Part shown: positions 398-64,000 of the stretch, in pieces
Position numbering within the stretch: the first letter of the stretch is position 1
Layout: every line of letters begins with the position of its first letter
IMG/VR virus record: IMGVR_UViG_3300021256_000073
Location: 1-64,000 of that record
Strand: one strand, 5' to 3'
DNA: 64,000 bases
Source: a virus
Taxonomy: Duplodnaviria > Caudoviricetes
The notes under the pieces: model-generated
What the model was told of the DNA's origin: nothing
The model's input: the letters and a program-made list of their open reading frames with translations, nothing else
The model's database searches: none
Translations under genes and position numbers: made by a program

Positions 398-573
398 GTT
401 ATATAATAAAAATCAGTTCTTAACTTCTCATCTTTTAAATCATACTTCTTATAATCTCCATTTTGCATATAAACACAATCCTTAGCATAGTCCCATTTAA
501 AGTATCCCTTATAATTTGGAAGCATACCTACTTTGCCTCTCCTTATTAAATATGCAACTTGCTCGAATGTCAT
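391..573 (-). CDS. small hypothetical protein (60 aa)
   Basis: In the ORF track; coupled to neighbouring genes at both ends. Confidence 0.75.
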   Translation of the reverse strand: MTFEQVAYLIRRGKVGMLPNYKGYFKWDYAKDCVYMQNGDYKKYDLKDEKLRTDFYYITW

Positions 574-722
574 TTTGTTTTTCTTTTAATTAATTTCTTT
601 TTTCTGTCTACATAATCTCCTTTCATATTAGATAGTGTAGGGTTACTATCCACAGTTCTATTAGGTCTAAAGTCAAACCCTTTATTTGGTCTTCCTCCAT
701 TTTTCAGTCCTAAAATTTTCAT
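570..722 (-). CDS. small basic hypothetical protein (50 aa)
   Basis: MKILGLKNGGRPNKGFDF...KKKLIKRKTK; its TGA overlaps the next ATG (ATGA). Confidence 0.6.
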   Translation of the reverse strand: MKILGLKNGGRPNKGFDFRPNRTVDSNPTLSNMKGDYVDRKKKLIKRKTK

Positions 723-755
723 AGTATCAAATTATTAAATTAAAAATTAATTTAC

Positions 756-786
756 TTTGGTTATTCTAAAAATAATACTAAGTTTG
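756..786 (+). promoter_or_regulatory. Bacteroidota sigmaA-type promoter (-33 TTTG / -7 TAnnTTTG)
   Basis: TTTG at 756-759, 19-nt spacer, TAAGTTTG at 779-786, in the divergent intergenic region upstream of the holin. Confidence 0.7.
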
Positions 787-889
787 AGTAGTTCAAAATT
801 CGTAGACAACAATATAAAAATATAATAGATAAATATGCTATATCTTAGTAGTATATATCTTGGACTTCTCATTAATTAAATTAGAAAAC

Positions 890-1162
890 ATGCAAAGTAA
901 TACTAAGGATTGGATTCAGTATGGTTCTGCTATAGCTATGATATTAAGTGCTATTGTTTTAGCCTTTTTATCTTTCTTTGCTATATAGGCCATTGAGGCT
1001 AGCGTACTATGGTACGTAGCTCAAGCTCTTGCTTATGCAGGCGGTATTTTTGGTGTAAGTATTTACATTAAATCTAAATTAGGAGAAGCTACAAGTGTAG
1101 TAAATTAGAGAATAAGAGAAGAAGTTAGAGATTAGATAGACAGACATTCTAGAAATAATTAA
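890..1162 (+). CDS. putative holin (90 aa, two TM helices; code 15)
   Basis: KDWIQYGSAIAMILSAIVLAFLSFF and VLWYVAQALAYAGGIFGVSIYI hydrophobic helices, then a charged tail. TAG at 986, 1106 and 1133. Confidence 0.7.
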
Positions 1163-1164
1163 TT

Positions 1165-2067
1165 ATGCAAATCGACAAGAAGAATGGAAGTGTATGTTTT
1201 TCTGAGAAGGAACACGTATACTGGAATGAAAATGACAATGCTAAGTACATATCTGTAACAACTTTAATTGAGAGATATGCCCAGCCTTTTGACAGGGATT
1301 TTTGGTCAGCATACAAAGCTTTAGAACAATTATTACCTGCTTCAGCTTGGGGAATTGAAAAGAAATCGCTGCTTGCTACTCACAAATTAGATAAGGAACT
1401 GCTTAGTACTTATGATATTAGTGAGTTAGATTTTAACAAAGCACAACAAGGAATTTTAGATGAATGGGATAAAACTAATAGAGACTCATGTGAGCGAGGA
1501 ACCAAAATTCATGCAAAACTTGAACAAAGTATGTATGATATGGGTGCTAACGTGTCCTTAAAGAAATTTGGTGTTGGAGGAAAATTTGTTTGTGACAAAG
1601 GTCGAACATCTTTAGACTTAGAAAATGGAGTCTATCCAGAATATTTAATTTCTTATTCGTCCGAAGATAAACTACTAAGATTGGCAGGACAGATAGACCT
1701 ATTAGTTATTTCAGGCAATCAATTTTATATATTGGACTGGAAGACTAATAAGGAAATCAAGACTAAGTCTGGATTTAATACATAGACTAAGAGTAGTGCT
1801 AAAATGTTATATCCTCTTAATAATTTAGATGACTGTAATTTCTATCATTATACATTGCAGTTGTCTACATATGCTTGGATGATACAACAAATAAGACCTG
1901 ACCTACAACTAAAGGAACTTATCATGGTTCACTTTGACCATAATGATAAGCAAACTATTTATCATCTTGACTATTTAAAAGATGAAGTAGAGAAAATGTT
2001 TAAGCACTACAAAAAAGAAGTGCAGAAAGAGAAACAAAGAAATAAATACAAAAGAATAGAGTACTAA
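1165..2067 (+). CDS. PD-(D/E)xK (RecB/Cas4-like) nuclease, 300 aa
   Basis: SVTT, RGTKIH, AGQIDL, DWKT and YTLQLSTY motifs; two same-frame fragments joined by TAG at 1783. Confidence 0.85.
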
Positions 2068-2333
2068 TGGAAATTGGACAAATAGTTAAAGGGCATGTTA
2101 ATGAAGTCTTGGGACTTAATGAGGATCTAAAAGAAAAAAGAATGAAAATCTGTCTCAAGTGTCCTCTTTATAAGGATACTTTAGGTGGAATATGTAATAG
2201 TAATTTATGGTTAAACCCTAAAACTGGAGATGTAAGTACAGAACAAGAAGATGGTTATTATAGAGGATGTGGATGCCGTTTGCAAGCAAAAACAACATTA
2301 GCAACAGCATCTTGTCCAGTTAAAAAATGGTAA
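2067..2333 (+). CDS. small Cys-rich, probably Zn-binding protein (88 aa)
   Basis: CLKC...C...GCGC...CPVKKW; TAATG coupling. Confidence 0.75.
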   Translation: MEIGQIVKGHVNEVLGLNEDLKEKRMKICLKCPLYKDTLGGICNSNLWLNPKTGDVSTEQEDGYYRGCGCRLQAKTTLATASCPVKKW

Positions 2334-2339
2334 TGTATT

Positions 2340-2939
2340 ATGGAAACGATCAATGGACATGATTTTAACAGTATTCCTACTGAAAAGGAAAAAATTGCAA
2401 GACAAGTATCAGATGGACAGCTTTTTTATGCTAATAAACAGTCGGTAGATGATTTAGTAATTGACCAGGCAAAAGCTAAATTTAATGACCAGGTAGAAGA
2501 GTATGTAAAGAAACTTGATGATCATGCTGAGCTTCTTAAGAAGTATCAAGAGTCTTTATGTGATGACTTGGAGAAACTTGAAATTAAGGCTATCGGTGCA
2601 GGATTACTAATCAAACCGTTTGAGGAAAATCCATTCCAGACTATTAAGAGAGTTGGTAGTATTATTACTGACCTTGGAGGAATGAAACCTACATATAAGA
2701 GTCACGAAACTGGTGATGTCGAAGAGGAAGAGCAGTTTATCCATGTAGGTACTGTAATAGATAATGGACCTGCTTGTAAATGGGTTCGTGAAGGAGATAT
2801 CGTTATGTGGAGAAAAGTATCTGAAACTCCTGTTCCTTTCTACAAGCAAGGTCTAGTACTTGTAAATGAACAGAGCATTATGACTGCTGTAAACCAAGGT
2901 CTTACTGCTCGCTTTAATGAATTAAAGAACAATGGATGA
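2340..2939 (+). CDS. GroES-like co-chaperonin with N-terminal extension (199 aa)
   Basis: IKAIGAGLLIKP...GTVIDNGPACKWVREGDIVMW...LVNEQSIM follows the GroES pattern. Confidence 0.7.
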   Translation: METINGHDFNSIPTEKEKIARQVSDGQLFYANKQSVDDLVIDQAKAKFNDQVEEYVKKLDDHAELLKKYQESLCDDLEKLEIKAIGAGLLIKPFEENPFQTIKRVGSIITDLGGMKPTYKSHETGDVEEEEQFIHVGTVIDNGPACKWVREGDIVMWRKVSETPVPFYKQGLVLVNEQSIMTAVNQGLTARFNELKNNG

Positions 2940-3153
2940 TAAAGTATATTTTATGCCTGGTGACTTGGTAACTATTAAATAGGACTTACCAAACAAGCCA
3001 GTTATGTTAGTAGTAAAGAAAGAAACTTACATATATAAAAACAAAGAAGATTAGAACTTGAAAGGAATCCGTTGTAGATGGTTTACTTCAGACGGAGTAC
3101 TTCAAGAGGAAGTATTTAATACGAAAGACCTAATTAAAGTAGAAAATGATTAA
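2932..3153 (+). CDS. DUF2158/YodC-like small protein (73 aa; code 15)
   Basis: FMPGDLVTIK...PVMLV...RCRWFTSDGVLQEEVFNTKDL; two TAG; overlaps both neighbours. Confidence 0.7.
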
Positions 3154-3652
3154 TAAATTTCAACAAGGAGGTGCTGCTCCACAATAGGGTGGAGGCATTT
3201 TAGCTTAGATTCAGCAATTACCACAAGAGCAACAACAGTAGATAATGTAGGCTTTTGGTCAATGGGTACAACAAAAAGGAATCGATCCTAGCCAACTTCA
3301 AGATCCAGCTGCTCTTGAACAAGCTCTTGGTCAGTTTATGCAAGAAATGCAACAGCAATAGGCACAAATGGCTAAACATGGTGCTAAGCTTAACTACATC
3401 AAGAAACTAAAGCATCAGTGTGCTGAAGATGAGGAACTCAAGTTCTTTGCTAAAGGTGGTAATATTGACTGTGGCTGTGTTAAGAAAGATATGAAAGGTG
3501 GTAAAGCAGAACCTAAGAAAAACGCACTACAGCAATTTAAAGACAGTAAGAAGCCATCAAAAAAATGTGGTGGTAAGATGAAGAAACATCAGATTGGTGG
3601 AACACTAGAGACCCTTAGACAATCTTTGGGGCTCGAAAAAAAAAATAATTAA
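3146..3652 (+). CDS. Gln-rich hypothetical protein with several xxGG motifs (168 aa; code 15)
   Basis: MINKFQQGGAAP...; TAGs fall inside poly-Gln runs; same frame as the 3368 fragment. Confidence 0.8.
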
Positions 3653-4415
3653 GAATTAGCAGGGAGGTAGTGTCAATCTATTTAAAAATCCCTTGAAGGA
3701 ATCTCCTAAAGAGCGATCATAGGTAACTTATAAAACTCCTGAGTTTGTTCCTACTTATAATAAAACTGTTCCAGAAGTTAATGTTATCTCAGCAAAACTT
3801 CCTGGTATAGAAGTAACTGCCACAGATTTATCTAAAACATAGAGATTCCCATATGGAGGAATAAATGTTATATCTAAATCTATAAATGGAGGTCTAGATA
3901 GAAAACAACGTACATTTATAAATCCATTTGAAAGCAGTGATTTGGTAGCTAGTAAGTAGGAGGGAGGACTTATTGAAAAATCTGATAATACTAGGGTTCA
4001 AAAGCCTATTCCTGGAATGATTTCTCCTGATTCAGAAGTTAGAACATATGATAATATTCCAGTAAGAGTTAGTAAGCATTATCCATATCAAGATAAGTAT
4101 TATCTTGGAAATCCAGCTAGGCCTATGTATTCTCGTGATAAGAATGTAAAGCTTAATGGAATCTATCCAAGTGTGTATGGAGTTGAATTAGACGTACTTG
4201 CTCCAGAATATATACAAAAAATAAATGGTAATGATACTACATACTATGTTCAAGGAGGAGATAAGAATTACTATCCAGTAGCAGGATAGCAAGACCGTCC
4301 AGCTTTTAGAGAAGCTTTTAAAAATCCAAAGGCTAGAGGTAACAGACCTAATTACTTTGATACACCTGAAAAAATAGATAAGTGGAAGCAAATAATTGCT
4401 AATTGGCAAAAATAA
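3636..4415 (+). CDS. open frame without a clear start, probably the frameshifted continuation of 3146..3652
   Basis: Open in code 15 from the A10 run to TAA at 4413-4415, which is coupled to the next ATG. First ATG only at 4017. Contains KNQQGG and KQEGG. Confidence 0.65.
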
Positions 4416-5002
4416 TGTTACATATTTTCCAGTATAATAATGTTAATGGTAAGGTTGAACTAGAAAAACCTGAAATTCTACTGATAAGTGAGTTTAAGGC
4501 ACTAGTACAGAAGAGTAGAAATGTATGTGATGCTGATAAAACTGGAGAAAAATGTTTGAGGGCATTTAAAGAATTTACATATATATGGCTTGCACTTGAT
4601 TGGCAGTCATTATATGCTGGATATACAGAGCAAGAGCGTCATGAAGAAGCTCTAAAAGACTCTGGACTTACAGAGGAAGAATTCAATGACCCTTTGTTTA
4701 GAGCTGCTTGTAGAAAGTATCGTGCTTTACAAGAAAGTAATAGAACTATACGTATGCTACATGCAGCACAACTCACGGTAGATAAGTTTATAGACTATTT
4801 TAATAATATTGACCCTGAAGAGCGTGATGCTCAAACAGGAAAGCCTATATTCAAGGTCAAAGATATAATGGCAGAAATTTCTAACCTATCTAAAGTACAC
4901 GAGGAGTTGAAAACTCTTGAATCTGCGGTTAAGAAGGAGATGGAAGAAGCTTCTCAATTACGTGCAGGTGCTGTAGAAGGTTATTTACCAACTGATTTCT
5001 AA
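4415..5002 (+). CDS. helical protein upstream of terminase (195 aa; possible small terminase subunit)
   Basis: Clean ORF, TAATG-coupled at both ends; function inferred from position only. Confidence 0.6.
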   Translation: MLHIFQYNNVNGKVELEKPEILLISEFKALVQKSRNVCDADKTGEKCLRAFKEFTYIWLALDWQSLYAGYTEQERHEEALKDSGLTEEEFNDPLFRAACRKYRALQESNRTIRMLHAAQLTVDKFIDYFNNIDPEERDAQTGKPIFKVKDIMAEISNLSKVHEELKTLESAVKKEMEEASQLRAGAVEGYLPTDF

Positions 5003-7329
5003 TGGCCGAAGAAGTTAAGAAAAAACGTGGACGTCCTAAAAAGAAATCTGCATTACTTCCAGTACCTGATGAGGTACAAACTATTATATAGGAAGCAATA
5101 CAAAAAGAAGAAAAGGAAATTCACGAAGAAGTGCAACAGTACGTTGCAGAGGTTAAATAGCAGCGTTCTGAGTGGGATGTTCCCAAGGACGCTGCTATTA
5201 CTTTTTTTGATAAAAGATTATCTTATGAAATCACTGGTTATAAACCAATCGATGAAAAGAGAGGTTTAGACTTTAGACCAGAGTGGTTTACAGAAGCTAG
5301 AGATAATAAAGAGAGGACAGGAAAATACTGTTAGTTTGTTCCTGGCTCAAAAGCATATGCTGATTTCTGGCATGGTGAGTATGTAAAGTGTAGAGAAGGA
5401 TGTACTATTAATGGTTATACTATTACAGGTCCACATTACTTCTTCCTTAACTACTACCAGTTGCCTAATACAGATGCAGGTAAAGCAGGTAGTTCCCGTG
5501 GAGTTATTTACCCAAGATTCTATGTATATCAATATGAGTTCTTTCATTACTATGAGATATGTAGAATTTTACGTAAGAATTGTGGGCTTATGAAGTCCAG
5601 AGGTATCGGATTCTCAGAAATCAATGCTTGCTTATGTGCTTGTATGTACTCTACATTTAGAGGTTCTAATACTCTAATGACTGCTGCATCTAAAAACTAC
5701 GTTGATAAGACACTTGAAAAGATTTGGGGAGAACTTAACTTCCTAAATGATAATACTGAAGGAGGATTCTTCAAACTTAGATAGGTATCTGATACAGCTT
5801 ATAAGAAGAGAGCCTCATATTATAAAATAGTACAAGGACAGAAAATTGAAGATGGTTGGAAATCTCAAATTGAAGGTATTGTTGCAGACGATGACTCTAA
5901 GATAAGAGGTGACCGTGTAGATTTGCTGGTACTTGAGGAGGCTGGTTCTAATCCAAAGTTCAGACGCTCCTTCATTAAAGGTGAAGCTCTTGTATCTCTT
6001 GGAGGTAACAAGTTCGGAATTATCCTTGCGGGAGGTACGGGAGGAGACTCTGGTCCTAATCTGGAAGGACTTAGCAATATGTACTATGATCCAGAAGGTC
6101 ATGATGTACTGCCATTCTTCCACAACTATACATAGGATGGAGATTGGAAGAAGACTTGTTATTTCATTCCTGCTTATATAGCTCTATATAACGGAGACTA
6201 TATGGATGAAAGAGGTTATTGTGATGCTAAGAGAGGTAGAGAGTATTATGAAAGTGAAAGAAGAAAAAGAGCTGGAGACCCTAGAGGCCTAGTTGAATAT
6301 TCTGCTGAGTATTGTTTTAATGCAGAAGAAGCTTTCGCTCTTGAAGGAACTAATAAGTTCAATAAAACTCTTATAGCTGAACAAATAACAAAGATTAAAG
6401 TTCTTAAAGAAGGTCCAACTATAGAAAATGGAGAATTTCAATTCCTATTTAAATAGGGTACCGACCATAAAAACTTAAGAAATGTATCTGGAGTTAGGTG
6501 GGTTCCTGGTAATACAGGATTAGTACATATAATTGAACATCCTATATGGTTAGGAGTTCATGAAGATGAGGAAGGTAATACTATATCATACGGTTAGAAA
6601 CGTAACCTTTATGTAGCCGGAATTGATGGTATTGATATTGGTATGGACTAGACATCTGATGAAACTAAAGACCCTTCTAATTTCTGTATAGTTATAAAGA
6701 AAAGAGCTTTTGGATTACAAGATCCTAAATATGTTGCTTACTATATGTTTAGACCTGATGATGAAAGACAGGCTTTCTAGACAGCTATGAAACTAATGCT
6801 TTACTATAATTGTAGAGCTAATATAGAAGCAACTCGTTTGTCTATGTTAAACTGGGCAAAAGGAAATGGATGGGGAGACTATTTTATGAGAAGACCTCGT
6901 GCTACATATCCAGAAGCTACAAGAAAAATAGGTAATGCAATTGGTACACCTGCTACTCCTACTATTATTAATCACCAGACGGACCTTATAGCTAACTATG
7001 TAGAAGACTATTGTCATAATATATGGTTTCCAGAATTCCTGGACTAGTTAAATAGATACACTGATGAAAAGAAAGGTAAGTTTGATATTATAGCCGCTAT
7101 GGGCATGGCGGAACTTGCTGATGAAGAGTTAGGAGGAGTTGTTGCCACTGATGTAGAACCTGATGAAGAAAACACATTCCAAGATATAGGTTATTACAGA
7201 GATGAAAATGGAATACGACACTTTGGAGTGATACCTAAAGTTCAGTAGCCTAAAGTAAGAGTAATGCAAGAATTTACTAATGAAGTAGTTAACAGAAATA
7301 GAACAAGCGATCCTCGAAAGTATACGTAA
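5002..7329 (+). CDS. terL: terminase large subunit (775 aa; code 15)
   Basis: Walker A-like LMKSRGIGFSE, Walker B LLVLEEAG, GGTGG, RNase H-like YVAGIDGID, FDIIAA; all fragments in one frame. Confidence 0.93.
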
Positions 7330-7582
7330 TGTATATTGTGTCGAGTATACAGGAACTCTTGATGTAGAAGAACTTAAACCTGTAGGATATAAGGTACGTC
7401 TTGGTATTTAGAATGCCGATAAGCCTATTACAATTATGGCAGAGCTTCCACTCTAGAAGTTTCTGAAGTTCTTTGTTCAAGAGTTAAGAGATAGACATTT
7501 AAATGACATCCATTATTACACAGGTTATAGGGTTCCCCCTGATGACTAGTGTTTTGATACAAGCTGTGCATGTAAGAAATGA
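7280..7582 (+). CDS. hypothetical protein (100 aa; code 15)
   Basis: MKQLTEIEQAILESIRNVY...SCACKK; overlaps the terL 3' end by 50 nt; TGA coupled to the portal ATG. Confidence 0.7.
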
Positions 7583-9768
7583 AAACAGATAACCAATATA
7601 TAGAAATGACTAACAAAATTATAGCGGAACTAGTCAAACCCAAGTGGGAACTATAGAAAGCATATAACTATTATAATGGAAAAAGAGATGCTGAACAATT
7701 CCGCTACTTAGAAGAAAATTATGGAATAGGAAATCCTACTTCTGTAGAGTTCATTCCTCTAATTCGTAAGCACGTGGATGCCTTAGTAGGTGAATATCTT
7801 GGTGTACCAATTTAGCCAAGAGTAACCTGCAAGGATACACGTACTCTTAGTAAGATTACTAGAGAGAAAGAACTTAAAATAAAAACTGAAGTATATAACT
7901 TCCTAAAGGAAAGATATAAAAATAAGATCCTTCAATCACTACAAGGACCTCAATAGATAGTAGACTAGAGTATAGAAAGAGATATGTAGGAACTTATAGA
8001 AGACCTGGATGCTAACTTTGTTTCAGAATATGAACAAGCAGCATAGAATGTAATCCAATTCATTTTACAAAGTAGAGAGGCTGACATTATTACTAAACAT
8101 AAGATGTTACTTCTAGATCTACTTATAACTGGATGGACATTCTATAGAGTTAAACCTTCTAGTTCAGGTTCTAATGTAAATGTAGAGGTACTTAATCCTT
8201 TAAATACATTTATCGATCCTAATCCAGAGAGTCCATATGTAAAACATTCTCATAGGGTTGTAGTTCGTAAATGGCTTACTAGACAACAAGTTCTTAACCA
8301 ATATGGTGAGCAACTTAGTAAGGAAGACATTGCAACTTTAAAAGAAGCATGGAGAGATACATTTGATAATGATTCATACTATGTACGTTCATTCGCATAT
8401 TGTGATGGACGCCCTGCTACAGATGGTATACGAGCTGGTAAGGAGATAATTCCTGGATATCCTGTTGATACTTATCATTCTCATCACTTTGAACTCATTC
8501 CAGTTTATGAAGTAGAATGGCTGGAAGCTGATAAGGACTTTACTATGTAGAGATATAAGACTACACGTATTGGTGAGAACATTTATATAATTACAGGTAA
8601 GGATGATACAGTAGTTAGAAGTCAAGACAATCCTACAGAATGTACACTATCAGTAAATGGAATCTATTTTACTAATAGAGGTACAGAACCTTACTCTCTT
8701 GTATTAGCTTGTGCTACTCTACAAGATAAGTATGACTTACTACACTTCTATAGAGACAATCTTATAGCCTCATCTGGAAGTGTTGGTGATTGGATTGATG
8801 TATCAGTACTTCCTAAGTTCTTAGGTAAAGACCTTCCTGAAAGACTTCAAAAGTTCTTAGCTTATAAGAAAACAGGTATGGCTCTTATTGATACTCAATA
8901 GGAAGGAGGAGCACTTGGCTCATAGACACCTATGAATACTATCTATAATGGATTTGATGATACAGTCAAGTCACAAGCTATCCAAGCTATTTAGATGGCT
9001 ATTGATTCAGTAGAATAGACAGCCTCATCAATTACTGGAGTATTCCGTGAAAGATTAAATGGAATATAGTAGCGAGATGCTGTTACTAATGTACAAACAT
9101 CTGTAAACAATTCATTTACTATTACAAAGTAGTACTATCAATAGATGGACTGTCTTACAGAGGAGATGATGTTAGATATACTTAATACTGCTAAAGTAGT
9201 ATTTAAGAAAGGAGTTAAGGGAGTCATAGTTCTTGGAGACAAACTCCAGAAAGTATTTACAGCTCTTCCTGAACACTTTACAGTATCTGACTATGATGTT
9301 CATGTTACTACGTCTACTGATATTATAAAGGATTCTGAATAGTTGCGTGCTCTTGTTCCTGAATTTGTAAAGGCTCAACTAATAGATCCTGAAGTTACTG
9401 TGGATATTATGACTACAAGAGACTTAACAGGAATTAAAGCTAGACTACGTAAAGCCTTATAGAAATAGAAGAAGGAAAACAGTCAAGTTCAGCAACTTAC
9501 TCAACAGAATGAATAGTTGTAGCAACAACTACAAGAATTACAATCACAATTATAGAAAGCACAAGGTCAAGTTCAACAACTTAATGAACGTAAGTTACAA
9601 ATTGAACAAGACAAGGTTAATAAAGATTATGAAGTTAAGAAACGTCAAGTGGAAGCCACAGATGCATATCAGACTGAGAAGAATCGTATCGAAGATGAAC
9701 GTACTAAGTTGGAAATTATGCAACTTAATGATGGCAATCCATATAATGATACAATTAGAAAATCATGA
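7579..9768 (+). CDS. portal protein (729 aa; code 15)
   Basis: AYNYYNG, PLIRKHVDALVGEYL, DLLITG, VYEVEWL, ITGVFRERLNG and a C-terminal coiled coil; follows terL. Confidence 0.88.
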
Positions 9769-10610
9769 CACCTAAGAAAATATCGCAATTAGTAGAAACC
9801 ACAGACTTAAGTTCTTTAGGTACTTGGATTCCTTTATGTTTAAAAACAGCAGGTGATCAGTATGAAAATAGAAAGATATCGCTTAATTCTATTGTAAATA
9901 AAATTACTTAGTAGATTCAGCAAAATATTAGTGACAGTTATGACCAAAGTGAACTTGGAATTCTAAGAAGTTAGATATAGACTTTATAGTAGAATTATGA
10001 TGATTTATCATCTAGATACTCTACTTTACTTAGTAATCTTAACAGCTTAGATTCTGCAGTACGTTCAAGTACTAACTTTCCAGAACATATTATCAAAATA
10101 TCTAATGGAACTGAGGTTATATATACTGAGACACTTCCTACTTGTATGAACGGTGAAAGAAAGGAATTGTTAATTGTATCTTCACAGTCTGTTGCTCCTA
10201 TGTACAGGGTTAGACTGATTCCTTCTCCTGTAACAGAAATAAATGGAAGAAGTTTTGTAATAAACTTTAGTGGAACTGTAGATACTAATAATGGACAATT
10301 TGTTGGAGGAAGCTATGGAGACATTAAAGCTAATATAGCATATTATATAAATGGAAGTTTATCTCCTTATGTATATGATAGTGCTGTTAAGTTATTTAAT
10401 GCTGGAAGTATCCAGAAAACTGATTCTACACAATCCTCAGGAACTAAAGCTATAGAAATTACTCCTCCAAATTTGTCAGAAGATATTTAGACTGTAGAAA
10501 TAAGACTTACTCTTATTATAGGCAGTACAACTTATACAGAATCTACAGCTAATGCTAGTACAACTAGTGCAACTGCACTTTCTAAATTAATGTATAGTAA
10601 TGCAAGCTAA
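9765..10610 (+). CDS. putative structural/fibre protein (281 aa)
   Basis: MTPKKISQLVET start, coiled coil, beta-rich C-terminus; tandem TAG TAG at 9909. Confidence 0.65.
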
Positions 10611-11355: not shown

Positions 11356-11521
11356 TTTAAAAAATAAAGTTATTTCAGACTTTGAAAACTTAATAGAGCA
11401 ACTTGATAGAGGATACACTAATGTTGATTATTGTAAAATACTACTGACCATATCCTTTATTTAGAATGCTTCAAAAATAGATAAAGTAAATAGTTTATAT
11501 GATACACTTATAAATCTATGA
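11339..11521 (+). CDS. small hypothetical protein (60 aa, GTG start)
   Basis: MDALLNLKNKVISDFENLIEQLDRGY... fills the gap; TGA coupled to ATG 11518. Confidence 0.55.
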
Positions 11522-16819: not shown

Positions 16820-16820
16820 A

Positions 16821-43825: not shown

Positions 43826-45247
43826 ATGATTGTAGCTAATTTTGTAACAAACAGATCTACTATGTCTGAAACAAGAACCTACGAGGACTTCTATAAGTTC
43901 CTAGGTACTCAGCCTTATAAGTTAGGCGTAGTTTCAAGACTTTACCCTGAGTTAACTGCTTCTTATCTCACAGAATCACTTAGAAACATTTTCTATCAGG
44001 ATAGAAAACAAGGTAATAAGTATCAGTCAATTGACGCTATGTACTTTGAGTGGGAAGTAGAAACTAACTATATTAAGAGAGTTGAATTCGCTGCAGTTCC
44101 TGAGCAAGATGGAGCTGATGGAAGCGAAATCGTAATGGCTTTCAAAGAAAGATATTATGAGAAGTATGACATCTTCAAGATTGATGAAACAGGTCAGCAA
44201 TGTTTCGTTGTAGCACGTCCAGTTCGTAAGGCTGATGATTACTGGGAAGTAACAGTTCGTCTTATTGACAATGACTATAAGTCAGTACTTGACCTTAGTG
44301 GTTGTCAGATTGGTATGACTACAAGATTCCAGTCTAACGCTATGCCTGAAATGCACGAGGAAGGTTACGTTAAGTATCAGTCTAACATTGAGAAGCATAG
44401 AAACTACATCACAACTCACCGTGTTGATGATAGCTATTCTGCTCAGTATGGTGCTTTCGAGGACAAGTTCATTTCTATCGGTGAAGGTAAAGGTCAAGGT
44501 AATCTAACTGAGACTATTTATAGAATGGATAAGTTAGAGAAGAACCTTCTTGACAACTTCCTATATGTAAGAAATAATGGTTTGCTTTTCAATAAGACTA
44601 ACGTTGATGTAAATGGCAAGCCAACTATTTCTGATCCAGATACAGGTCGTCCTATCTACATTGGTGATGGTATCATTCCACAGGTTGAAAGATTCGCTAG
44701 CAAGTATGCATTCGTTAAGCTAACTATTGATGTATTCAATGTAGTTATCGCTACTTTGAATGAGAAAGCTAAGAAACCTACAGGTAACAAGTACATGTTC
44801 ATCTGTAATGAAAGAATGTGGAACCTAATCCAAACTGTTCTTGGTGATTTCCTCGCTAAGTATAAGACAGAAGGAACATATATTTACAGTAAGCAAGCTA
44901 ATGACTACATTAAAGTTGGTGCTACATTTGATTCTTATGAGTATGGTGGTAACCAAATCAGCTTTAAGGTAGATAGAACATTCTCAAGAGAGTATGGATT
45001 CCAGAAAGCTTATTGCTTATGCTTAGATTTAACTGCTGATGCTACTGAGGCTGAGCCACCAATCCAGATGTTTACATTAAAGGGTGGTGACTTTATCACT
45101 AACAAATACCTTGGTGTAGGTGGACGTAATGGACTAAGCTCTGGTGAGGTTTCAAGTCCAGTTGCTGCTTCTAAGGTTATCAACTGGGGTTACTCAGGTG
45201 TTGGTGTATTCAATCCTTACAGAAGCTTCATTCTAAGAGAAGTGTGA
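43826..45247 (+). CDS. major capsid protein (473 aa)
   Basis: Size, position after the scaffold-like gene, crAss-type motifs (YFEWEV, GRPIYIGDGIIPQ), strong codon bias, no TAG, downstream hairpin. Confidence 0.9.
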   Translation: MIVANFVTNRSTMSETRTYEDFYKFLGTQPYKLGVVSRLYPELTASYLTESLRNIFYQDRKQGNKYQSIDAMYFEWEVETNYIKRVEFAAVPEQDGADGSEIVMAFKERYYEKYDIFKIDETGQQCFVVARPVRKADDYWEVTVRLIDNDYKSVLDLSGCQIGMTTRFQSNAMPEMHEEGYVKYQSNIEKHRNYITTHRVDDSYSAQYGAFEDKFISIGEGKGQGNLTETIYRMDKLEKNLLDNFLYVRNNGLLFNKTNVDVNGKPTISDPDTGRPIYIGDGIIPQVERFASKYAFVKLTIDVFNVVIATLNEKAKKPTGNKYMFICNERMWNLIQTVLGDFLAKYKTEGTYIYSKQANDYIKVGATFDSYEYGGNQISFKVDRTFSREYGFQKAYCLCLDLTADATEAEPPIQMFTLKGGDFITNKYLGVGGRNGLSSGEVSSPVAASKVINWGYSGVGVFNPYRSFILREV

Positions 45248-47282: not shown

Positions 47283-47303
47283 TTTTAATTTAATTTAAAA
47301 GTT

Positions 47304-48221: not shown

Positions 48222-48228
48222 TTTATAT

Positions 48229-48260: not shown

Positions 48261-48265
48261 ATTTT

Positions 48266-54355: not shown

Positions 54356-54357
54356 TA

Positions 54358-57300
54358 ATGGCTTTAAATCTATAGTTTTCAATTGGGCAGGCAGCTAAGT
54401 GCCTAGCTTAGAAAGGAGACCTTGTATATGAGTATAATCCTTTCAAAACTTTTAGAATAAATGGTCCAGATACAGAGCTTGGGGATGAACCTCCAGGCTC
54501 TATACTGGATTTAGATACAGAAAAACTACAATTTGATCTTAACCATCCAGTAGATATTATTACATAGCCCTCTTATGATGGTTCTGTTAATCTTATCTTA
54601 AATGATGGTATACACTCTCCAAAACTTATAAATAGCAGATTCTCAGTTATAGGAGATGGATAGTATTAGATTGTAGATAGACAAGGAGATAATGATACAA
54701 ACATATATGATAAAGAATCATTTGATACTGATGTATCTCTATATAAAAAGGCTACTACAATAGCTAAAATTAAATTCATAGGTCTTACCTCTGGAGGAAA
54801 CTTAAAAGTAGGAAATTACCATTTCTATTTTAAATTAGCCGACTCTGACGGAAATGAAACAGACTTTATAGGAGAATCTGGAATGGTAACTTGTTATATA
54901 GGAAACCTTAATGAGCCATACTCTATTTAGGGAGGAATTCGTGACCAAAGTAGTTTTAAAGCAGCCCACTTTGAGCTATCTAATTTGGATTCATCTTATG
55001 ACCATGTTGTTATTTACTATACACGTAGTTCATCAGATAATCTAAGTAATAGAGAAACTACTGCATTTAAGATATTAAAGGATTATCCTATATATAATTC
55101 AAGATGTATAGTGAGAGTTAATGGTTATGAGGATATTTTAGGTGTAAGTATCAATGATATTAATGTCCAATATAATATTATAGATTCTGCTTTTACATAG
55201 GAAGCATCACAAAACATGCTTTTCCTAGGAAATGTAAATAAACCTAGAATTCCTTATAAAGAACTTGCTGACCTATCATTAAGAATCTTCCCTACAATCA
55301 CCTAGGAAGAAGATATTGGATTTGTGGATTAGAATTATAGAGACAGTTCTGGTAAGTATGAGTACTATAATGTAAATAATATATACTATAAATTAGGATA
55401 TTGGAATGATGAAATCTATCGTTTCGGAGTTGTTTATATTATGAATGACTTTACACTTTCTCCTGTTTTTAATGTAAGAGGTAGAAGTATCCTTGATAGT
55501 ACAGCTTGTGTTGTTGAGAGTGTATATGATGGCTCTGGAAATAGAGTGTATATTCCAATTGATAAAGAATATAACAGAATAAATTCTACTGATAATAGTA
55601 AAGGAGTTTCAAGAATAGTTACCACTATTCCATAGATAAATAGTACTTAGAGAAAAGTACATCCAATAGGTATTAAGTTCAATATAAATAGTGATGTTAA
55701 ACAAGAGCTTAGTAAATATACAATAGGATTCTTTTTTGTAAGATAGCAACGTATAGCTACTACTCTATGTGAAGCAGCTACTATTGGAGTAGAACAAGTT
55801 AGTCACCTTCCTACTCTTCCAGTTAGTGGTAATAAGTATATAATGGAAAGCTTCCTTACTAAGAATAGATTATTATCTCATACATTCCAGGATAGAAAAA
55901 ATACTATTACTGATGCCTATGTAAATAGTAGTAGTGCAGCAATATGTCCTGAATATGAACTAAACTATGCTTTCTTTAATTAGTTCTTTACAGGTTCTAA
56001 ATTTCTAGTAAAAACTTCTGTAAATAACTACAGTCAAACATACTGTAATGCTTCTAATTTCCACTTCTATAATATGACATAGGGAAATTCTAGTAATAGT
56101 GTACAAGAAGAATTTCAAATTGTTGCCATAAAAGATGGATAGGCACTAGCAAAGAATACTAATTCGCTGTATTCGGCATTAGCAGGTACTGCTGAAGAGG
56201 TATTTAGAGTTTCATATTTTCAATTTAAAAGTCCTTCTGAGAAAGCTACAAACTTACTAAGAGGTGTGTATGGACCTTATATAGGACTTGAAGGAAGTAT
56301 AGGACTGCCAGGTAATATGTAGTTGATTGATATAAAGATTCCTAACTATAATGAGGCTAATATGGATGAGTACTTCCAAATTAGATATTAGGACTCTTCT
56401 CCTTTCTTCCCAATTTCTGATAGAATAGCTTGGAAAGATGCTAGTTCAGATACTATATATTATAGAGGTGACTGTTTTATAGGTAACTTTACACATAGAA
56501 TGGTTAGAAACTTTGCAGACCCATCTGCCCCATATAATGATGATATTATTGATATTAATGTATGGGCGGATAAGATGGATTTGTCGGATAAAGACTCATT
56601 TGAAAAAGTAAATAGAGGTGATGTAAATGCAGTTAAAATGGGGCACTGGTTTACAACTAAAGTTTGTAGTAATTTAAATATATCTTTAAGAAGTGTAGAT
56701 CATTCTTGGGCTTCAGAAGAAGGTATTACAAATAAACCTAGAGCTTTCTATCCTCTTTATGCAATGAGTACATCTGGAGAAAATAAAGTTCCAGAATCTA
56801 ATGTATATAATAAGGGTTACCATAACACTCTTTCTTCAAGATATAATTATGAGACTCCTAATGTTCCAGCTATAAAAGATGTATTTACTACGAGAATAAT
56901 GTACTCTGACATAGCAATAAACGATGCTTTTAGAAATGGCTATAGAGTATTTGATTTAATGCACTATCGTGATTATACCTTAACATATGGTTCTTTAAAA
57001 CGCCTGGTTGAATGGTAGAGTAATCTTATTGCTGTTTTTGAACATGGAGTTTGTTTAATACCAGTTAATGAAAGAGTAGTTTCAGGACGAGGTGCAGGCG
57101 GAAATGTTTTCATAAACACCTCTAACGTACTCCCTGAGACTCCATTAGTTCTTAGTGATATGTTTGGTAGTCAGTGGGCAGAAAGTGTCTTGAAGACTCC
57201 AAATTATGTATATGGTGTAGATACAGTTGGTAAGAAGATTTGGAGAACAAATGGAAAATCTTTTGAAATTATATCTAATTTAAAAGTTTAGAAGTTCCTT

Positions 57301-58989
57301 ATTGATAATATATCTCTTACAGAAACAGAGTCTACCCCAATTATAGGTATTAGAAATGTAAAAACTCATTACAATGCCTATAAAGAAGATGTAATGTTCA
57401 CTTTCTATGATGATATTAATAATATAGAAGAGAAAGTTTGGAATTTATGTTGGAATGAACTTACAAATAAATTTACAACATTCTATTCTTGGGTTCCTTC
57501 TTACTCAGCTAATATTGATAATATAATGTTTACTTTTGACAGGGATACCTCTAAGATAATTACTAAACTTACAGAGTATTATCCTAAAATTAAACTATCT
57601 CCTACAACAGAATCATATAGAAATGCATAGTATACAGGAGGGGATACATGGATTGAACTAGGAACACTGAGTATTAATGGTTCAGATTCAAACTACACAT
57701 TTGAAATCTACAATGATAACTCTAATAATAAGGATTATTTCTATATTACTAATAACAAATTATATGTTTCAAGGGCTGCTTACATAACCTTGAATTTCTG
57801 GTCAGCAACAGTAAAAGCTATTATTGTTACTTCTAATAGTGATATTGAAAGAGAAAATAGATATGTTTCAGGAGCTATATATGGAGTGGTTACAGCTTGT
57901 AAAGATGCTTATAAGAACACTCTTACTACTTCATTCTGGAAGCATGGTTAGGCTGGACTTATGAAACACAGGGATATCAAACCTTGTTTCTGGTATGGTA
58001 AATAGCATCCATTTGAGTTTGAATTTGTAGTTTTAGATAACCCTTAGACTCATAAAGTATTCGATAATTTAGAGATTATAAGTAATAAAGCACAACCAGA
58101 ATCATTCCACTTTGAAATAGTTGGAGAAGTTTATGATTTTGCAGATGACAAATTAAATATGTATTATAGACAAGAAGCCACTAAATAGGTATTTTAGAGA
58201 TTAGGTTCTAACATTAAGTTTAATAGGAATTTTACATCTCTACTACCTAAATAGGAAAAGATAATAGGCTCTACCTATAATAAAAAGTCTACATACTTAC
58301 CTCTATATTATCAACGTATTGAAAACCTAGATAAGATATATAATTCTTATACTTAGATGCAGTACAATAATGGAAAGAATTGGAATAATCTAGTTCCTAG
58401 AGATTATTGTCATTTATCTGGTTCTGAAATAGTATATGATCCATAGTTATCTGAGTTTAGAATAGCTACACATATAAAATGTTGTCCTTTAGATGGATAT
58501 TATGATAAAGAGATTACTAAAGATGAGTACAACTACATAGTATCTCATTTTAATCCAGCATTTAAAAAGGCTTTTGCTTGGACTACAGATAATGGAACTA
58601 AATTCTATGAAAGAGTATTCTATGGAAGAATAAAAGGTAATTCTGATTATAAAGAGGATAAATGGTATGTATAGATTCCTTCTATTACATTTATGTAGAA
58701 AAATGAAGCTACATGGAGTAAACCACCACTTGTTATAAGTCCTCTCGAATTACCTAGTGATATAACAAGTACCCAACTTAATTAGGCTTTGCTACCAGAG
58801 GGTTATACACTTGAAGATATAGATGTACTACCTAATACTTATGAACAAGGAAATAGATTAAGTGGGTGGACTAATAGAAAGGAAACTAAACTAAGAGATA
58901 AGTATATGAAAGTACGCATTAGATATACAGGTAATGATCTGGCAGTTATATCTGCTATTAAAACTATTTATACAGAGAGTTATGCGTAA
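54358..58989 (+). CDS. tail stabilization/muzzle-related protein B (1543 aa)
   Basis: LILNDG...PKLINSRF, LFLGNV, EIYRFGVVY, FGSQW, YGVD, FYSWVP and C-terminal KLRDKYMKVRIRY. Confidence 0.75.
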
Positions 58990-60664
58990 ACAATTAATAA
59001 AAAGAAAGTAGCTGGGAGGGGTTTTAGGACCCCTCACAGATGCTGCTAAAAACGCTATTGCAGATACTGAAGAAGATACTATTGCCAGTAACCTTTTCGG
59101 AAGTTCTGCAGCAGCAAAAAATGTAGATAACTTCTCAGCTAGTAATTGGACTGAGAATTTTAAGCCTACTTCTAAGGTAAGTTTATTGGATAAAATAAAA
59201 GGATTTGGACAAGGAGCTTTAAATTCTTTAGGAGGTGTATCAGGTGCCACCAATTTAGCAAGTAATATGTTGGGGTCTATTATAGGCAAGCCTGATATAA
59301 ATTCTGGAGGGTTCAAGACTGTAGATAATATACTTGGAATAGCACAAAATTTTCCTATTGTTGACCAATATGCATCTCTTTTAAAATTTGGAATGAATAC
59401 TCTTAATTCGTTAGGAGCTAAGAAACTAAAAGAGGTTAAAGATGACTAGGCTACTGCTGATACTCTTGCAAATACTGGAGGAGGTTACGGTGGGTTTATG
59501 AAAGACTGGGATGAGGCTAGTAACCTATCAGGAAAAAGTGTTGGATTTTTTACAGGTTCATCTAAGTACAATAGAATGATTGAAAAAGCTAATGCAGACT
59601 TAGCAAAAGTAGAGAAAATTACTAATGCTAATACTACTAATAACCTACTTACTGCTTAGATGGGAGATGTTTGGAATCAAAGAACAATGAATGAAATGAA
59701 TGGAGGTTTTGGAAACATTTCATTTGGACGTCTTGGATTAAAGGTAGATATCCTTCCAAAAGTACATGCTATTTTAAATACTCCTAAAGTAGTAGCAACT
59801 CTTACAGAGTATGAGGAAGAAACTCCTCTATTTAAAGAGGGTGGTAAAATGAATGTAATTCCAGAAGGTTCTCTTCATGCTAGACTTCACCATATGGAAA
59901 ATGCAGATGGACTCACCAAGAAAGGTATTCCAGTTGTATCTATTTAGGAAGGAGAGCAGCAAGCAGAAATTGAGCTTAATGAGATAATCTTTAGACTTGA
60001 AGTTACCAAAAAGATTGAAAAACTTATGGAAGATGGTTCAGAAAGTGCAGCTATTGAAGCAGGTAAACTACTTGTAAAAGAGATATTTGAAAATACTGAT
60101 GATAGAACTGGACTTATCGACACTCTTAAGCCAGAAGAAAAGAAACAAACTACTGAAGATATAGTAAAGAATCATCAAGTATTTTAGAAAGGTGGAGAAC
60201 TTCCAAATCTAAAATCCATAGAAGAACTTGTAGATTTAGCTATTAAATAGAGTCCAGCTTTTGTAAAGAGAATTGGAGATGATATGGGATATGCTGAATT
60301 TACAGATGAAGAAGGTAAAATTCAGAGAGGAACCCATTTATTAAGCTATGCAGAAGATGATGGCGAATATGTAGTGTATCCAGAAATCTAGATGGAAAAT
60401 GGAAGACTGCAATATGAAAAAGATTGGAGAAAAGCATTTGACAAAGCTAAGAGAACTGGAAATGTTATAAGATTTAAAGATCGGGCTGATGCAGAAAAGT
60501 TTACTAAAGAGTATAAGAATTCTAAATAGTGGAAGAACTACTTCGATAAGTGGAATCAACGCTATGGTTCTTATAAGTATGGAGGTATAATTGAAAAATT
60601 AGATACCCTTTCTGATGAAGAACTTCAAGAATTAAGAAAATATTTAAAAATTGAGGAAGCATGA
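58982..60664 (+). CDS. putative cargo/ejection protein (560 aa)
   Basis: Gly/Ala-rich amphipathic N-half; GSLHARLHH...KGIPV...AEIELNEIIF domain; several xxGG motifs; follows the muzzle genes. Confidence 0.7.
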
Positions 60665-61233
60665 TTAATATTACTTTAGGAGACAAATAGTTTAGGGTAG
60701 AAGAAGCTGCCTCATATAAAGAAAGAAGAGATGGATTACAGGGGGTTACAGATCTTCCACCTAATTAGGGAATGATTTTCTATTTTGACGAACCAGACTT
60801 AGTTGAAATGTGGATGAAAGATACTCCAATACCATTAGATATAATCTTTATAAATAGTGACCAAGAAGTTACAGCTGTTGAAAAAGGCAAGCCAAATGAT
60901 GAGACTCTTCTTGGACACGATGATACTCTATATGTAGTAGAACTTAATTAGAATTCTGGAGTAAAAGTTGGAGATGAATTGGAATTTGATGATGACCAAG
61001 CTCCTCAAATGAAAGTACTTGCACCCGATGGTTCTACTTAGATGGAACTTTGGGGAGGAGAAAGAATAGTATCCCGTAGAGAAACTAAAGTTCTTATATC
61101 TAAAGCATTTAGAGCAAGAGAAAGTCATAACGATAAGGACTATAAAGCATTAGGTAAATATATATTTAAGGTATTTAAAAAATAGGATTCACGAGAACCA
61201 GAATATGTTCAAAGTCCTGAATCTAAATCTTAA
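60661..61233 (+). CDS. DUF192-domain protein with C-terminal extension (190 aa; absent from ORF track)
   Basis: GL...LPPNQGMIFYF...MWMKDTPIPLDIIFI...YVVELN...VKVGD matches the DUF192 pattern. Confidence 0.8.
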
Positions 61234-61321
61234 ATATATAAAAGTTGCTAACGAAGTTGTAAATAGATGTATAAATTAATATATTCACTGTACTTAAGAG
61301 TTTAATTAAACTATTTGATTT

Positions 61322-61645
61322 ATGAAATTTAAGACATTAAAATTTTAGGAAGGTGGAGCAATGCCTCCACAAGAAGCACCAGCAGGCGCACCTGAAGCAG
61401 GTGGAGCACCAGCAGGCGCACCAGCAGAGGAAGGTCCTGAAGCTGGAGGTCAAGATCCACTACAGCAATTAGTTCAGATGAGTATGCAGGCTCTTTAGAG
61501 TCAAGATTGCCAAGCAGCAATGGCTGTATGTCAGGCCTTTGTTCAGTTAGCACAGCAGCAAGGTGGTGCTGAACAGCAACCAGAACCACAAGGCGAGCCT
61601 GTTTATAAGAAAGGCGGTAAATTCGCTAGACTCATAAAGAAATGA
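61322..61645 (+). CDS. small Ala/Pro/Gln-rich protein bracketed by xxGG motifs (107 aa)
   Basis: MKFKTLKFQEGG...PVYKKGGKF; ends TGA TAA; followed by a terminator. Confidence 0.8.
61375..61422 (+). repeat. 18-nt direct repeat (30-nt period) encoding APAGAP
   Basis: AGCACCAGCAGGCGCACC at 61375 and 61405. Confidence 0.8.
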
Positions 61646-61654
61646 TAACTGAAT

Positions 61655-61687
61655 TGGGGTGTACGTTAGCTCGTATACCCCATTTTT
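61655..61687 (+). terminator. intrinsic terminator
   Basis: TGGGGTGTACG-TTAGCT-CGTATACCCCA followed by TTTTT. Confidence 0.85.
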
Positions 61688-61699
61688 AATATATAACAT

Positions 61700-64000
61700 A
61701 TGGCAGATCCAAAAAATCCTTTTGATTTCGGTACAGGAAGTATCGATAAAGACCAATGGCTAAAGGATATAGACAATGAATAGGAAGGCTTTGTATCACA
61801 ATATGCAAATGCAGCTAATAAGCATAGAACTACATTGCTTAGATAGGCTTTCCAGGATTTGAGAAATCGAATAGCTAGTGGTGACATGCTGAGCCGTACT
61901 GCGGATGGATAGTATCAATTCGGTTCAGCATTAATAAGTGGAGATAAACACATGCAAGAAGCTTATCAAAGAGCTCTTGGATTTATGGGAAATCTAGCAA
62001 GGAGACAAATCAATACTCCTGCTCCAGAACCCGAAAAGAAAAGTATAGGAAACATAGAAGAAAGATGGATAAAGTCGCTTAACCCATCTGGAAATTATAA
62101 TAAAACTGCTTACTGGAAGAATCAAACTGATGAGGAAAGAAGAAACAACCTAAAAACTTTCTTAAACAATGAACTTACTAAGGTAAATAATCATGAGTAT
62201 AATGATTATGGAGGTTTTAATGATGAGGCTACCCTTACTAATAGACTTAAGTCAGTACTAACTGCTTTAGAAAGTCAGAAAGCTAATGATTGGACTCTTC
62301 AACAGCTTGGTTTTACAAAGAATTGGTTACAGCAACCAGAAGAAGAAAAAGAAGAGGAGGCACCAAAAACTAGATTAGAGCAAGCACAAGAAAACTATCA
62401 AGCAGCAATAGCTGATTAGCAAGCCGCTTAGATAGAACAATAGACAGCTGCTTTAAATACCCCATCTCCAGTAACAAAGTCTGTATTTTAGGACGATCCT
62501 AACAAATTCTGGAACTATATGTCATATAAAAGATAGGAACAGAATAGAATAAACAATCTTAAATATATAGATGAAAATGGAAATGTATTTTTAAAAGCAG
62601 GAGTAGGATTTAACTACGCCCCAATGGGTAATGGAGTAACATCCTATACTAAAACCACAAGAAATACTGCTTGGAATGGACAAGTGGCTAATGCTGCAAG
62701 AACTCAAGCAGCTAACTAGTATAACTCTGAGTACAATAAAGAACTTGACTCTTATTTTAAAAACTTAGGAATAAGTTATGAATCTTTAAAAGACAAAAAG
62801 TTTACTAATCCATTGATGACTAATTTAGCTAAGTTATTCACATATAAAGCCTCTAAAGATGGTAACCAGTATGTGGCAGCTAATACTATAAGAAAATATT
62901 TTACTCAGCTGGAAAATGGAACATATGGATTGAAAGGAACTAATTTCTCTTATGATCCTACTCAAGGTATCATATATCAAACTTCTAACATTGATAATTA
63001 TAAAGAAGGAGGGGTAATTAAGGCTTAGCAAGGTTATGTTTTTGATGATTCAGAGTATGTAAGTACTCCTAAACCTAAGCAAGTTCAACCAGGTGAATCT
63101 ATTAAAGGAAAGCCTGTTAAAAGTCCTTTTGATGGATGGTCTGCAGGTGATTATGCTTTACTAGGTAGTGCTGCTGCAGATGTAGCTTCAATGGCTGCTT
63201 CATTTGTTCCTGGAGGACAATTAGCTTCTGGACTTATAGGAGCTGGAAGTACTTTAACTTCTAGTATGGTAGACTTCTCTAGAGGTAATCTTAAATCTGG
63301 AGGTCTCAACTTAATTCTTGGTTTAGGTGCAGATGCAGCTGGTATGCTGCCTGTTATTGGTACAGCAACAAAGACTGCAAAGATAGCAAAGACTATAGGT
63401 AAACTATCAAAGGTATTAGTTCCAGCATTTGCTATGAGTGGTGCTACTGCTGCAGCTTAGGCAACTTCTAAGCTTATTAAAGGTGAGGCATTGACTCCAC
63501 AGGAATGGCAGGATTTGGCTCAAGGTTTCCAACTAATTGTAAGTGGAGGTGCCAAGGGTATTGCAGGACACAAGAATGCTGCATTTAAACGTACTCAAGC
63601 AGAAGGAGTAACTCACTATGATGTAAATCTAAAAGATGGAGCTACCACTAGAATAACTAGAGAAGAATTTGAGGGTGCTAAAAGAAATGATTATAAGGGA
63701 ACTGCTGAATAGAATATATTTGGAAAAATAAAAGGTAAACCAGTAGTTACTAAAGAAGGTCTAAATAATGCTCATAAAAAGATAGTATCTGAAAGTCTTA
63801 ATCCTTTAAACTCAGCTTCTACTAGTCAGTACAATTATATGTTAGGCAAAGCTGGAGATAATGGATATTAGATTAAATCATGGGATACTCCAGAATGGGC
63901 ACCATTAAAGAGCTTATAGGAAAAGCGTTTAGCTTCTATATAGGAAGTTAAGTCTTAGACACCAAAAAGAAAAAGAAAAGGAAAATCTAAGGCTTCTAAA
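61700..64000 (+). CDS. large cargo/ejection protein, runs off right edge
   Basis: One code-15 frame to the window end; YKEGGVIKAQQG motif; Gly/Ala hydrophobic helices at about 63150-63560. Confidence 0.75.

Follow-up and report, generated by a model that had tools for sequence, protein, structure and literature searches.

A short peptide ending in two glycines recurs at the termini and module borders of otherwise unrelated proteins of a crAss-like phage, and it is kept as a signal at the protein level; the reading that we favour, with a probability of roughly 0.4, is that it serves as a loading or docking tag on proteins inside the virion, remaining uncut or being trimmed only at the very ends. 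The window, i.e. the whole stretch of DNA that was analyzed, comprises positions 1 to 64,000 of IMG/VR record IMGVR_UViG_3300021256_000073 and makes up the opening 64 kb of a linear virus record of 103.6 kb (the contig; CheckV completeness 57%). TAG was read as Gln throughout, which gives long open reading frames (ORFs). The comparison set consisted of close relatives from IMG/VR, with genomes of 163-195 kb in which the same gene order is kept (loci numbered with L, genomes G001-G005); five relatives that are at least 90% complete were used for protease searches.

An initial annotation of the window had reported a recurrent [K/F/Y]-[Q/K]-x-G-G peptide in cargo-like and small proteins, with several copies containing a TAG-encoded Gln. 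When re-read from the DNA with TAG as Gln, all sixteen copies were found in place, and four of them encode their Gln by TAG. Gene 3146 (3146..3652; plus strand, as are the genes that follow unless noted otherwise) encodes a Gln-rich, Cys-rich basic protein of 168 amino acids (aa) that begins with MINKFQQGG (KFQQGG at 3155-3172) and further contains the variant AKHGAKLNYIKK (AKHGAK, 3371-3388), FAKGG (3446-3460), KKCGG (3560-3574) and KHQIGG (3584-3601). On its 3' side, reached over a run of ten A, lies a +1-frame module (3594..4415) that starts ...KKIIKNQQGG (KNQQGG, 3651-3668) and has an internal KQEGG (3954-3968). Gene 58982 (58982..60664; 560 aa), in the cargo protein 1 position right after the muzzle gene, carries four copies, namely MRKQLIKRKQLGG (KQLGG, 59006-59020), FKEGG (59831-59845), FQKGG (60182-60196) and YKYGG (60572-60586). 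Gene 61322 (61322..61645) encodes a 107-aa micro-protein, the core of which is a two-Cys helical hairpin, tagged at its N-terminus with MKFKTLKFQEGG (FQEGG, 61343-61357) and at its C-terminus with PVYKKGGKFARLIKK (YKKGG, 61604-61618); the N-terminal half of the 3146 protein has the same design. Gene 61700 enters the window with the first 767 residues of a 1,364-aa protein (61700..64000 in the window, ending at 65794 on the contig) and bears the double tag YKEGGVIKAQQG at 62999-63034, with further seams past the window at residues 777 (LRKGGIIK) and 1326 (AKNGG). On the minus strand, a 50-aa basic protein, MKILGLKNGG...KKKLIKRKTK, is encoded at 570..722 (LKNGG at 693-707), and a leftward gene cut by the contig end (2..397) starts MVIKLQNGDKFKV, with the variant KLQNGD at 371-388. 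The tag thus reaches beyond the cargo block, into small proteins near terL and leftward genes. PHROGs and Pfam provided no name for any tagged protein.

The copies point to a consensus of the form [basic-hydrophobic stretch]-[F/Y/K/L]-[Q/K/R]-x-G-G-x-[I/L/V]. The motif extends past its five core residues: copies at termini are flanked, on the outer side of the Gly-Gly, by a basic-hydrophobic stretch of the K-L-I-K-R type, and downstream of the Gly-Gly x-[ILV]-[KE] often follows. At free ends, the layout is RKLIKR-YQxGG-body at N-ends and body-YRxGG-KLVRRIKK at C-ends, and in N-terminal copies the second Gly is frequently swapped (QNGD, QNGV, QLGN). The tag occupies residues 4-12 in five proteins (those of 3146, 58982, 61322, 65791 and the 50-aa gene), and C-terminal copies lie 8-25 residues from the C-ends. 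The pattern M-[KR]-x(1-8)-K-[FYL]-Q-x-G-G is found inside the first 13 residues of the 3146, 58982, 61322 and 65791 proteins and is conserved in each family.

When motif counts were compared with shuffles made within each protein, preserving its own composition, [KFY][QK]xGG was found 13 times on the 103.6 kb contig compared to 2.97 ± 1.70 in the shuffles (0 of 2000 shuffles reached 13), and [FY][KQR]xGG was found 8 times in the tagged small and medium proteins (3,281 aa), once in the giant cargo proteins (8,677 aa) and not at all in the capsid, portal, ring, muzzle, fibre and enzyme proteins of the contig (21,714 aa); the pattern and the protein classes were picked after the data had been seen, so that these counts overstate the case and carry supporting weight only. 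The restriction of the motif to cargo-type and small basic or Gln-rich proteins is supported, and the single internal LKGG of the major capsid protein (MCP) was found as described. Conservation in homologues provides an independent test, and the motif passes it.

The position of the tag is conserved in four unrelated families, those of 58982, 61322, 65791 and 3146, down to about 30% identity, and the tag is kept in thousands of relatives. In the 58982 family (4,878 homologues, all of them unnamed and lacking Pfam domains), all four copies are in place. The N-end reads MRKLIK[KR]YQxGG, x-E-F-K-E-G-G-K-M-N-V stands immediately before a near-invariant core (IPEGxLHARLHHME ... KKGIPVV ... EQQAEIELNEIIF), HQVF[QK]xGG follows the core, and YGSYKYGGIIEK is close to the C-end. 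Among the 120 members listed, a copy precedes the core by at most 25 residues in 97, and a copy lies 60-140 residues beyond the core in 86. Among 188 distinct copies of the tag in this family, position -3 is F or Y in 165 and position -2 is K or Q in 182, the copies having been selected with [FYMLW][KQRE]xGG, which already restricts both positions. A tblastn search of GenBank phages with 58982 produced only two unannotated records, in which the conserved core is covered.

The 61322 family (363 homologues) has KFQxGG at the N-end in 119 of 120 members, and PVY[KR]xGG plus a basic tail at the C-end in 112 of 120. In the 65791 family, 107 of 120 members begin M-K-[LIV]-x-I-x-K-[FL]-Q-x-G-G; the exceptions begin 'MGGEF', 'MQLGGEF' or 'MSLFTQY' and look like starts mis-called past an in-frame TAG. 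The expectation that standard annotation hides copies was borne out in this family, given that gene calling with code 11 hides some of them and that the homologues beginning 'MGGEF...' or 'MQLGGEF...' start right past the expected TAG-Gln; TAG-recoded copies are thus a cause of truncated gene calls in public protein sets. The 3146 family retains MINK[FY]QQGG, AK[HF]GAKLxYIK, [YF][FY]xxGG ahead of a Cys pair, and KCGGKMKKHQIGG, and all tags of gene 3146 are conserved in IMG/VR relatives L002-L005, L012, L013 and L017. Conservation extends to the double tag K[EN]GG[VKI]I[KE]xxQxG and the joint IGGILxxLRxGGIIKA of the 61700 family (seams at residues 434 and 777; four homologues, 28-59% identity), to the 50-aa protein, which reads MKIYGLKFGG...KKKLIKRKKK in L002, L003 and L004, and to the N-terminus MI[IV]KLQ[NS]GDK of the leftward gene 2-397 in L002 and L003. 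Separately, the C-terminal half of the 3146 family (3400-3600 in the window) consists of a variable array of basic Cys units, KCGxKMKKKKCExGG..., which are more numerous in L015 and L016 (around 3300-3530) and suggest a protamine-like or zinc-binding, DNA-associated protein.

The 15-nucleotide stretches that encode the copies differ in their codons (GGA GGT, GGT GGT or GGC GGT for Gly-Gly; AAA or AAG; CAA or TAG). Since the codons vary, the repeat exists at the protein level only and it is the peptide that is under selection; the idea that the motif reflects a conserved repeat or recombination site in the DNA was rejected. Positional conservation and varied codons together identify the motif as a real protein-level signal.

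The proposed location of the motif at termini and domain boundaries is supported by the terminal positions described above and by the AlphaFold models. In the model of the 58982 protein, numbered from the longest ORF at 58934, segments with a predicted local distance difference test score (pLDDT) below 50 are 20-142, 284-350, 413-422 and 548-551, and all four tags (25-29, 300-304, 417-421 and 547-551) fall in such dips between confident modules; residues 430-540 have an average pLDDT of 86-96. In the model of the 61322 protein, only the helical hairpin at 46-80 is ordered, and both tagged termini are disordered; a pairing of these two termini was considered, and none was predicted. A Foldseek comparison of the 58982 model with the PDB returned nothing at E ≤ 0.001. 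The core of 58982 (59831-60180; residues 300-416 in the same numbering) is the most conserved part of the family, in which H315 is invariant and H319 and H320 are almost so; to judge from the model, its folding may require a partner such as the portal, or it may bind metal.

Modules are fused, split or swapped exactly at the tag. Past the HQVFQxGG joint, members of the 58982 family either continue in at least four different ways or end after two more residues, and inserted extra modules are flanked by extra copies of the tag. Modules like 3146 and 3594 form a single ORF in L002 and L013, with an internal ...LNKFQYGG, and are separate genes in L004, where the second begins MKLIKKHQFGG; the 3594-like module is missing from L003 and L005, and in the window the two are linked only via the A10 run at 3636-3645. 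In L014, KKQQGG stands between an N-terminal extension and the Gln-rich core, and the proteins of L015 and L016 begin right past it, untagged. In place of the window gene 2-397, L004 has a free-standing 72-aa gene (L004:41-256, minus strand) that keeps the tag (MILYLKDGN...) with a different body, and this body matches residues 371-423 of crAss001 gp45 at 70% identity (E 2e-23). In gp45, this module sits between AKDGG (GG at 373) and NAFGG (GG at 427) and ends ...HEEGGKLCLIPRN, and the free-standing copy is tagged at each end. As for the A10 junction itself (3636-3652), it may reflect slippage, a homopolymer assembly error, or a separate gene starting with ATA (3645) or ATT (3648), the product of which would start M-I-K-N-Q-Q-G-G, akin to the MINKFQQGG of 3146.

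The nearest known counterpart is gp45, the cargo protein C1 of crAss001, which has the same punctuation. Like 58982, C1 is encoded directly after the muzzle gene, and it shares with the tagged proteins a leader of basic residues at the N-terminus and a hydrophobic stretch rich in Gly. Gly-Gly occurs in it 21 times, and its module borders carry aromatic-x-x-GG or A-[FY]-GG. NAFGG (427) and FAYGG (562) flank its portal-bound domain in the way that FKEGG and FQKGG flank the 58982 core, and one of its modules is the free tagged gene of L004, a close relative of this phage. The joints differ in that those of C1 prefer Ala and an aromatic residue beside the Gly-Gly, whereas the tag described here has [FY]-[KQ]-x. 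Residues 425-552 of C1 were modelled as one chain and domain on the portal wing (PMC10172136). This stretch starts with A-F-G-G and includes I-N-E-G-G, and since it was built as one chain, both joints are intact in the virion. The piece bound to the tail barrel (214-245) starts four residues past SAYGG (residue 209). The authors describe C1 as a continuous thread through the portal (PMC10172136). In the text of Bayfield et al. 2023, the motif is not described, cleavage and proteolysis are not mentioned and the word 'motif' is used once (PMC10172136); a literature search for the motif found no description.

By sequence, no similarity was detected between C1 and 58982 or any other contig protein (hmmsearch against the PDB, hhalign, Pfam and six-frame PF25725), and a profile of the 58982 family had no match in the PDB at all. 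With PF25725 (crAss_CARG1; cut-off 27 bits), 58982 and 61700 had no hit at E ≤ 1, compared to 222 bits for the gp45 control, and a six-frame search of the whole contig gave no match at E ≤ 10; PF25712 (crAss_CARGO2) likewise had no contig match at E ≤ 10 (gp46 control, E 6e-219). An Atlas feature search with a database homologue of 58982 returned PF25725 as a weak language-model lead (score 0.87).

To judge by gene order, the tagged proteins are most likely located in the virion. The gene directly 3' of the muzzle gene, i.e. in the position of cargo protein 1, starts at 58982, as originally called, and does not correspond to the longest ORF, which starts at 58934. After the muzzle, the order is 58982 (560 aa), a DUF192 gene, 61322 (107 aa), 61700-65794 (1,364 aa) and 65791 (627 aa), followed by four giant genes reaching 93706. 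This block occupies the same place as the cargo block of crAss001 (PMC10172136), and crassviruses pack about 5 MDa of protein beside their DNA (PMC10172136).

Under the loading or docking reading, a common partner, such as the portal, the tail-channel rings, the scaffold or the packaged DNA, would read the tag during assembly, and the tag would load and position proteins in the particle while staying uncut or being trimmed only at the very ends. As all modules would be bounded by the same tag, they could be fused, split and exchanged with loading kept. Both the partner and the uncut state of the tag we infer. In favour of this reading are the positional conservation, the terminal copies, which have no modules to connect, the split genes and the free-standing C1 module that retain the tag, the disordered location of the copies, the uncut joints of C1, the varied codons and the outcome of the searches for known Gly-Gly or prohead protease families, none of which was found. 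Several observations weigh against it. In crAss001, the joints take a looser form (A-[FY]-G-G) and belong to a protein without detectable sequence similarity to the window proteins, so the evidence that joints stay uncut is borrowed; moreover, the C1 structure shows only joints in or beside a folded domain, and those within disordered linkers may still undergo cleavage. The same gene block also encodes a conserved zincin-like protein. Finally, the partner is a proposal, AlphaFold monomers carry no docking information, and the virion location of the tagged proteins follows from gene position rather than from proteomics of this phage or its close relatives.

The initial annotation had offered a choice between a sorting signal and a di-Gly protease site; the motif is a real signal at the protein level, and both mechanisms are proposals. 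The second option, a maturation-cleavage site, is somewhat doubtful. In this case, a phage protease would cut after the Gly-Gly in the procapsid or after ejection, removing basic leaders and tails and freeing modules, as in T4 internal proteins, the adenovirus core and polyvalent proteins. The most plausible enzyme would be a zincin-like cargo-block protein of 839 aa, probably packed with the cargo and encoded on the contig at 86544-89063, 22.5 kb past the window end (L019:545-3061), which contains the only HExxH on the contig. Among its 364 homologues, HExxH is present in 121 of 121 full-length ones, H681, E682, H685, E735 and E736 are invariant, as is C838, and C4 is nearly so; the HExxH domain was found in 5 of 5 relatives at least 90% complete. 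A polyprotein-like layout with one motif at every joint, the short basic N-leaders and C-tails outside the Gly-Gly and the 58982 homologues that stop two residues past it are all compatible with cleavage, and in their study of phi14:2, Drobysheva et al. considered fused cargo polyproteins 'likely cleaved' and named a zincin-like domain (10.1101/2020.03.07.982082). The same authors, however, also proposed peptidoglycan digestion for that domain (10.1101/2020.03.07.982082), and nothing ties the present protein to Gly-Gly specificity: it has no Pfam hit at E ≤ 0.01, no PHROG annotation and no PDB sequence match. The AFGG and INEGG joints of C1 are intact in the virion (PMC10172136), and split genes retain the tag rather than begin after it: the split module of L004 keeps it behind a new Met (MKLIKKHQFGG, compared to LNKFQYGG in L002), where a tag that served only to separate modules would have no use.

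Known Gly-Gly protease families were also not found in the five relatives. For Peptidase_C48 (PF02902), no hit exceeded the cut-off, with a single 15.8-bit hit in G005 only; Peptidase_C39 (PF03412, of the double-glycine leader system) was absent, with positive controls; C5 (adenain, PF00770) gave none in a search without a positive control; and Peptidase_S78 gave none, the T4-type S77 family not having been searched.

A passive hinge or recombination seam, in which the flexibility of Gly-Gly would serve unfolding and threading through the tail, while the flanks spread by recombination and nothing reads the motif, is unlikely. It would fit the copies in disordered linkers, the diverse continuations after HQVFQxGG, the inserts bracketed by extra copies and the fusion and split variants at the joint. 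However, copies at the extreme termini join nothing, so a simple hinge is insufficient; positions -3 and -2 are conserved across unrelated families, with the preferences given above for the 188 copies of the 58982 family, whose selection pattern restricted both positions; and codons that are not conserved offer no substrate for homologous recombination at the DNA level.

It is quite unlikely that the tags act after ejection and not in loading, binding DNA, membrane or peptidoglycan through their basic amphipathic flanks, or zipping consecutive cargo proteins together for ordered ejection. The basic tails (KLVRRIKK) and leaders (RKLIKR) beside the tags, the repeated KCGGKMKK units of the 3146 family and the invariant or nearly invariant C838 and C4 of the zincin-like family are consistent with such a role, which is otherwise a proposal with no direct support; no pairing of the tagged termini of 61322 was predicted, and mutual pairing is improbable given that both flanks are basic. 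An effect of chance or composition in Lys-, Gln- and Gly-rich proteins, suggested by the after-the-fact definition of the pattern and the biased composition of 3146 and 61322, is very improbable in view of the shuffles and of positions conserved in hundreds to thousands of homologues.

Extending the loading or docking reading, Crassvirales might use a universal 'cargo code', a possibility that we consider somewhat doubtful: any module would have [F/Y]-[K/Q]-x-G-G at its borders, plus basic flanks where an end is free, and would be read by one receptor. Candidates for the receptor would be the portal or ring channel, the scaffold and the packaged zincin, and it would set which proteins are loaded, the order of their threading out and, possibly, later cut sites. 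A tag of about 12 residues could then be enough to direct foreign proteins to the crassvirus capsid. A tag shared by thousands of cargo proteins makes cargo selection, ordering and release testable, and it offers a practical way to recognize internal or ejected proteins in genomes of uncultured crAss-like phages, where hidden Markov models fail; here, neither C1 nor C2 is detectable with Pfam.

In concept, the tag resembles several known systems, and it lacks their testable defining sequence or enzyme features. The capsid targeting sequence (CTS) of phage T4 is an N-terminal tag of about 10 residues on unrelated internal proteins that are packed in the head and injected, and it is removed by the prohead protease gp21 at L/I-x-E. 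As in T4, a shared N-terminal tag is found here on unrelated proteins that are internal by gene order; in contrast to the CTS, the motif has Gly-Gly at its end and is found at C-termini and internal joints as well, and Peptidase_S78 was not found in the five relatives. The adenovirus protease cleaves core and cement precursors at (M/I/L)-X-G-G|X, and the polyproteins of African swine fever virus have Gly-Gly-X sites. The likeness consists of a hydrophobic residue upstream of the Gly-Gly, the occurrence in virion-internal proteins associated with DNA, and short basic end peptides outside the site. The adenain consensus, however, does not describe the 188 copies, in which the F/Y/M/L at -3 corresponds to P5 and not P4, -2 (P4) is K or Q and -1 (P3) is variable; no clan CE protease was detected in the five relatives (the C5 search being without a positive control), and the virus lineage is unrelated. 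The polyvalent proteins of phages and conjugative elements, the subject of Iyer et al. 2017, are reportedly exchangeable strings of modules delivered with the DNA, often with a predicted processing zincin-like peptidase, and we know of no common junction peptide described for them; here, even single-module proteins of 50 to 107 aa are tagged. Encapsulin cargo-loading peptides (PMC8346489) are short, Gly-containing terminal peptides that dock unrelated cargo inside an HK97-fold shell, their binding to the shell having been demonstrated. They differ in consensus and are terminal only, and docking, demonstrated there, is proposed here.

Other features of the window are the genes for terL (5002-7329), the portal (7579-9768), the endolysin (42070), the MCP (43826-45247), a ring-1-like protein (48937) and the crassvirus muzzle protein (54358-58989; PF25731, E 2.1e-26). 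The DUF192 protein (60661..61233, plus strand; 190 aa; PF02643, E 2.3e-22) is untagged, lies between two tagged genes and is encoded in the same position in G001, G002 and G004, unlike in crAss001, which has no gene between gp45 and gp46. As a possible reader or protease of the tag, it was dropped, because the literature was uninformative and because of this difference from crAss001. Immediately 5' of terL, a 199-aa gene (4403-5002; phrog_16390) is strongly conserved in all relatives examined and is a candidate for the small terminase subunit. Further along the contig (99830-100435, minus strand), an apparent enzyme gene of 201 aa has the N-terminus MEIITKYQSGD, the resemblance of which to the tag is probably due to chance.

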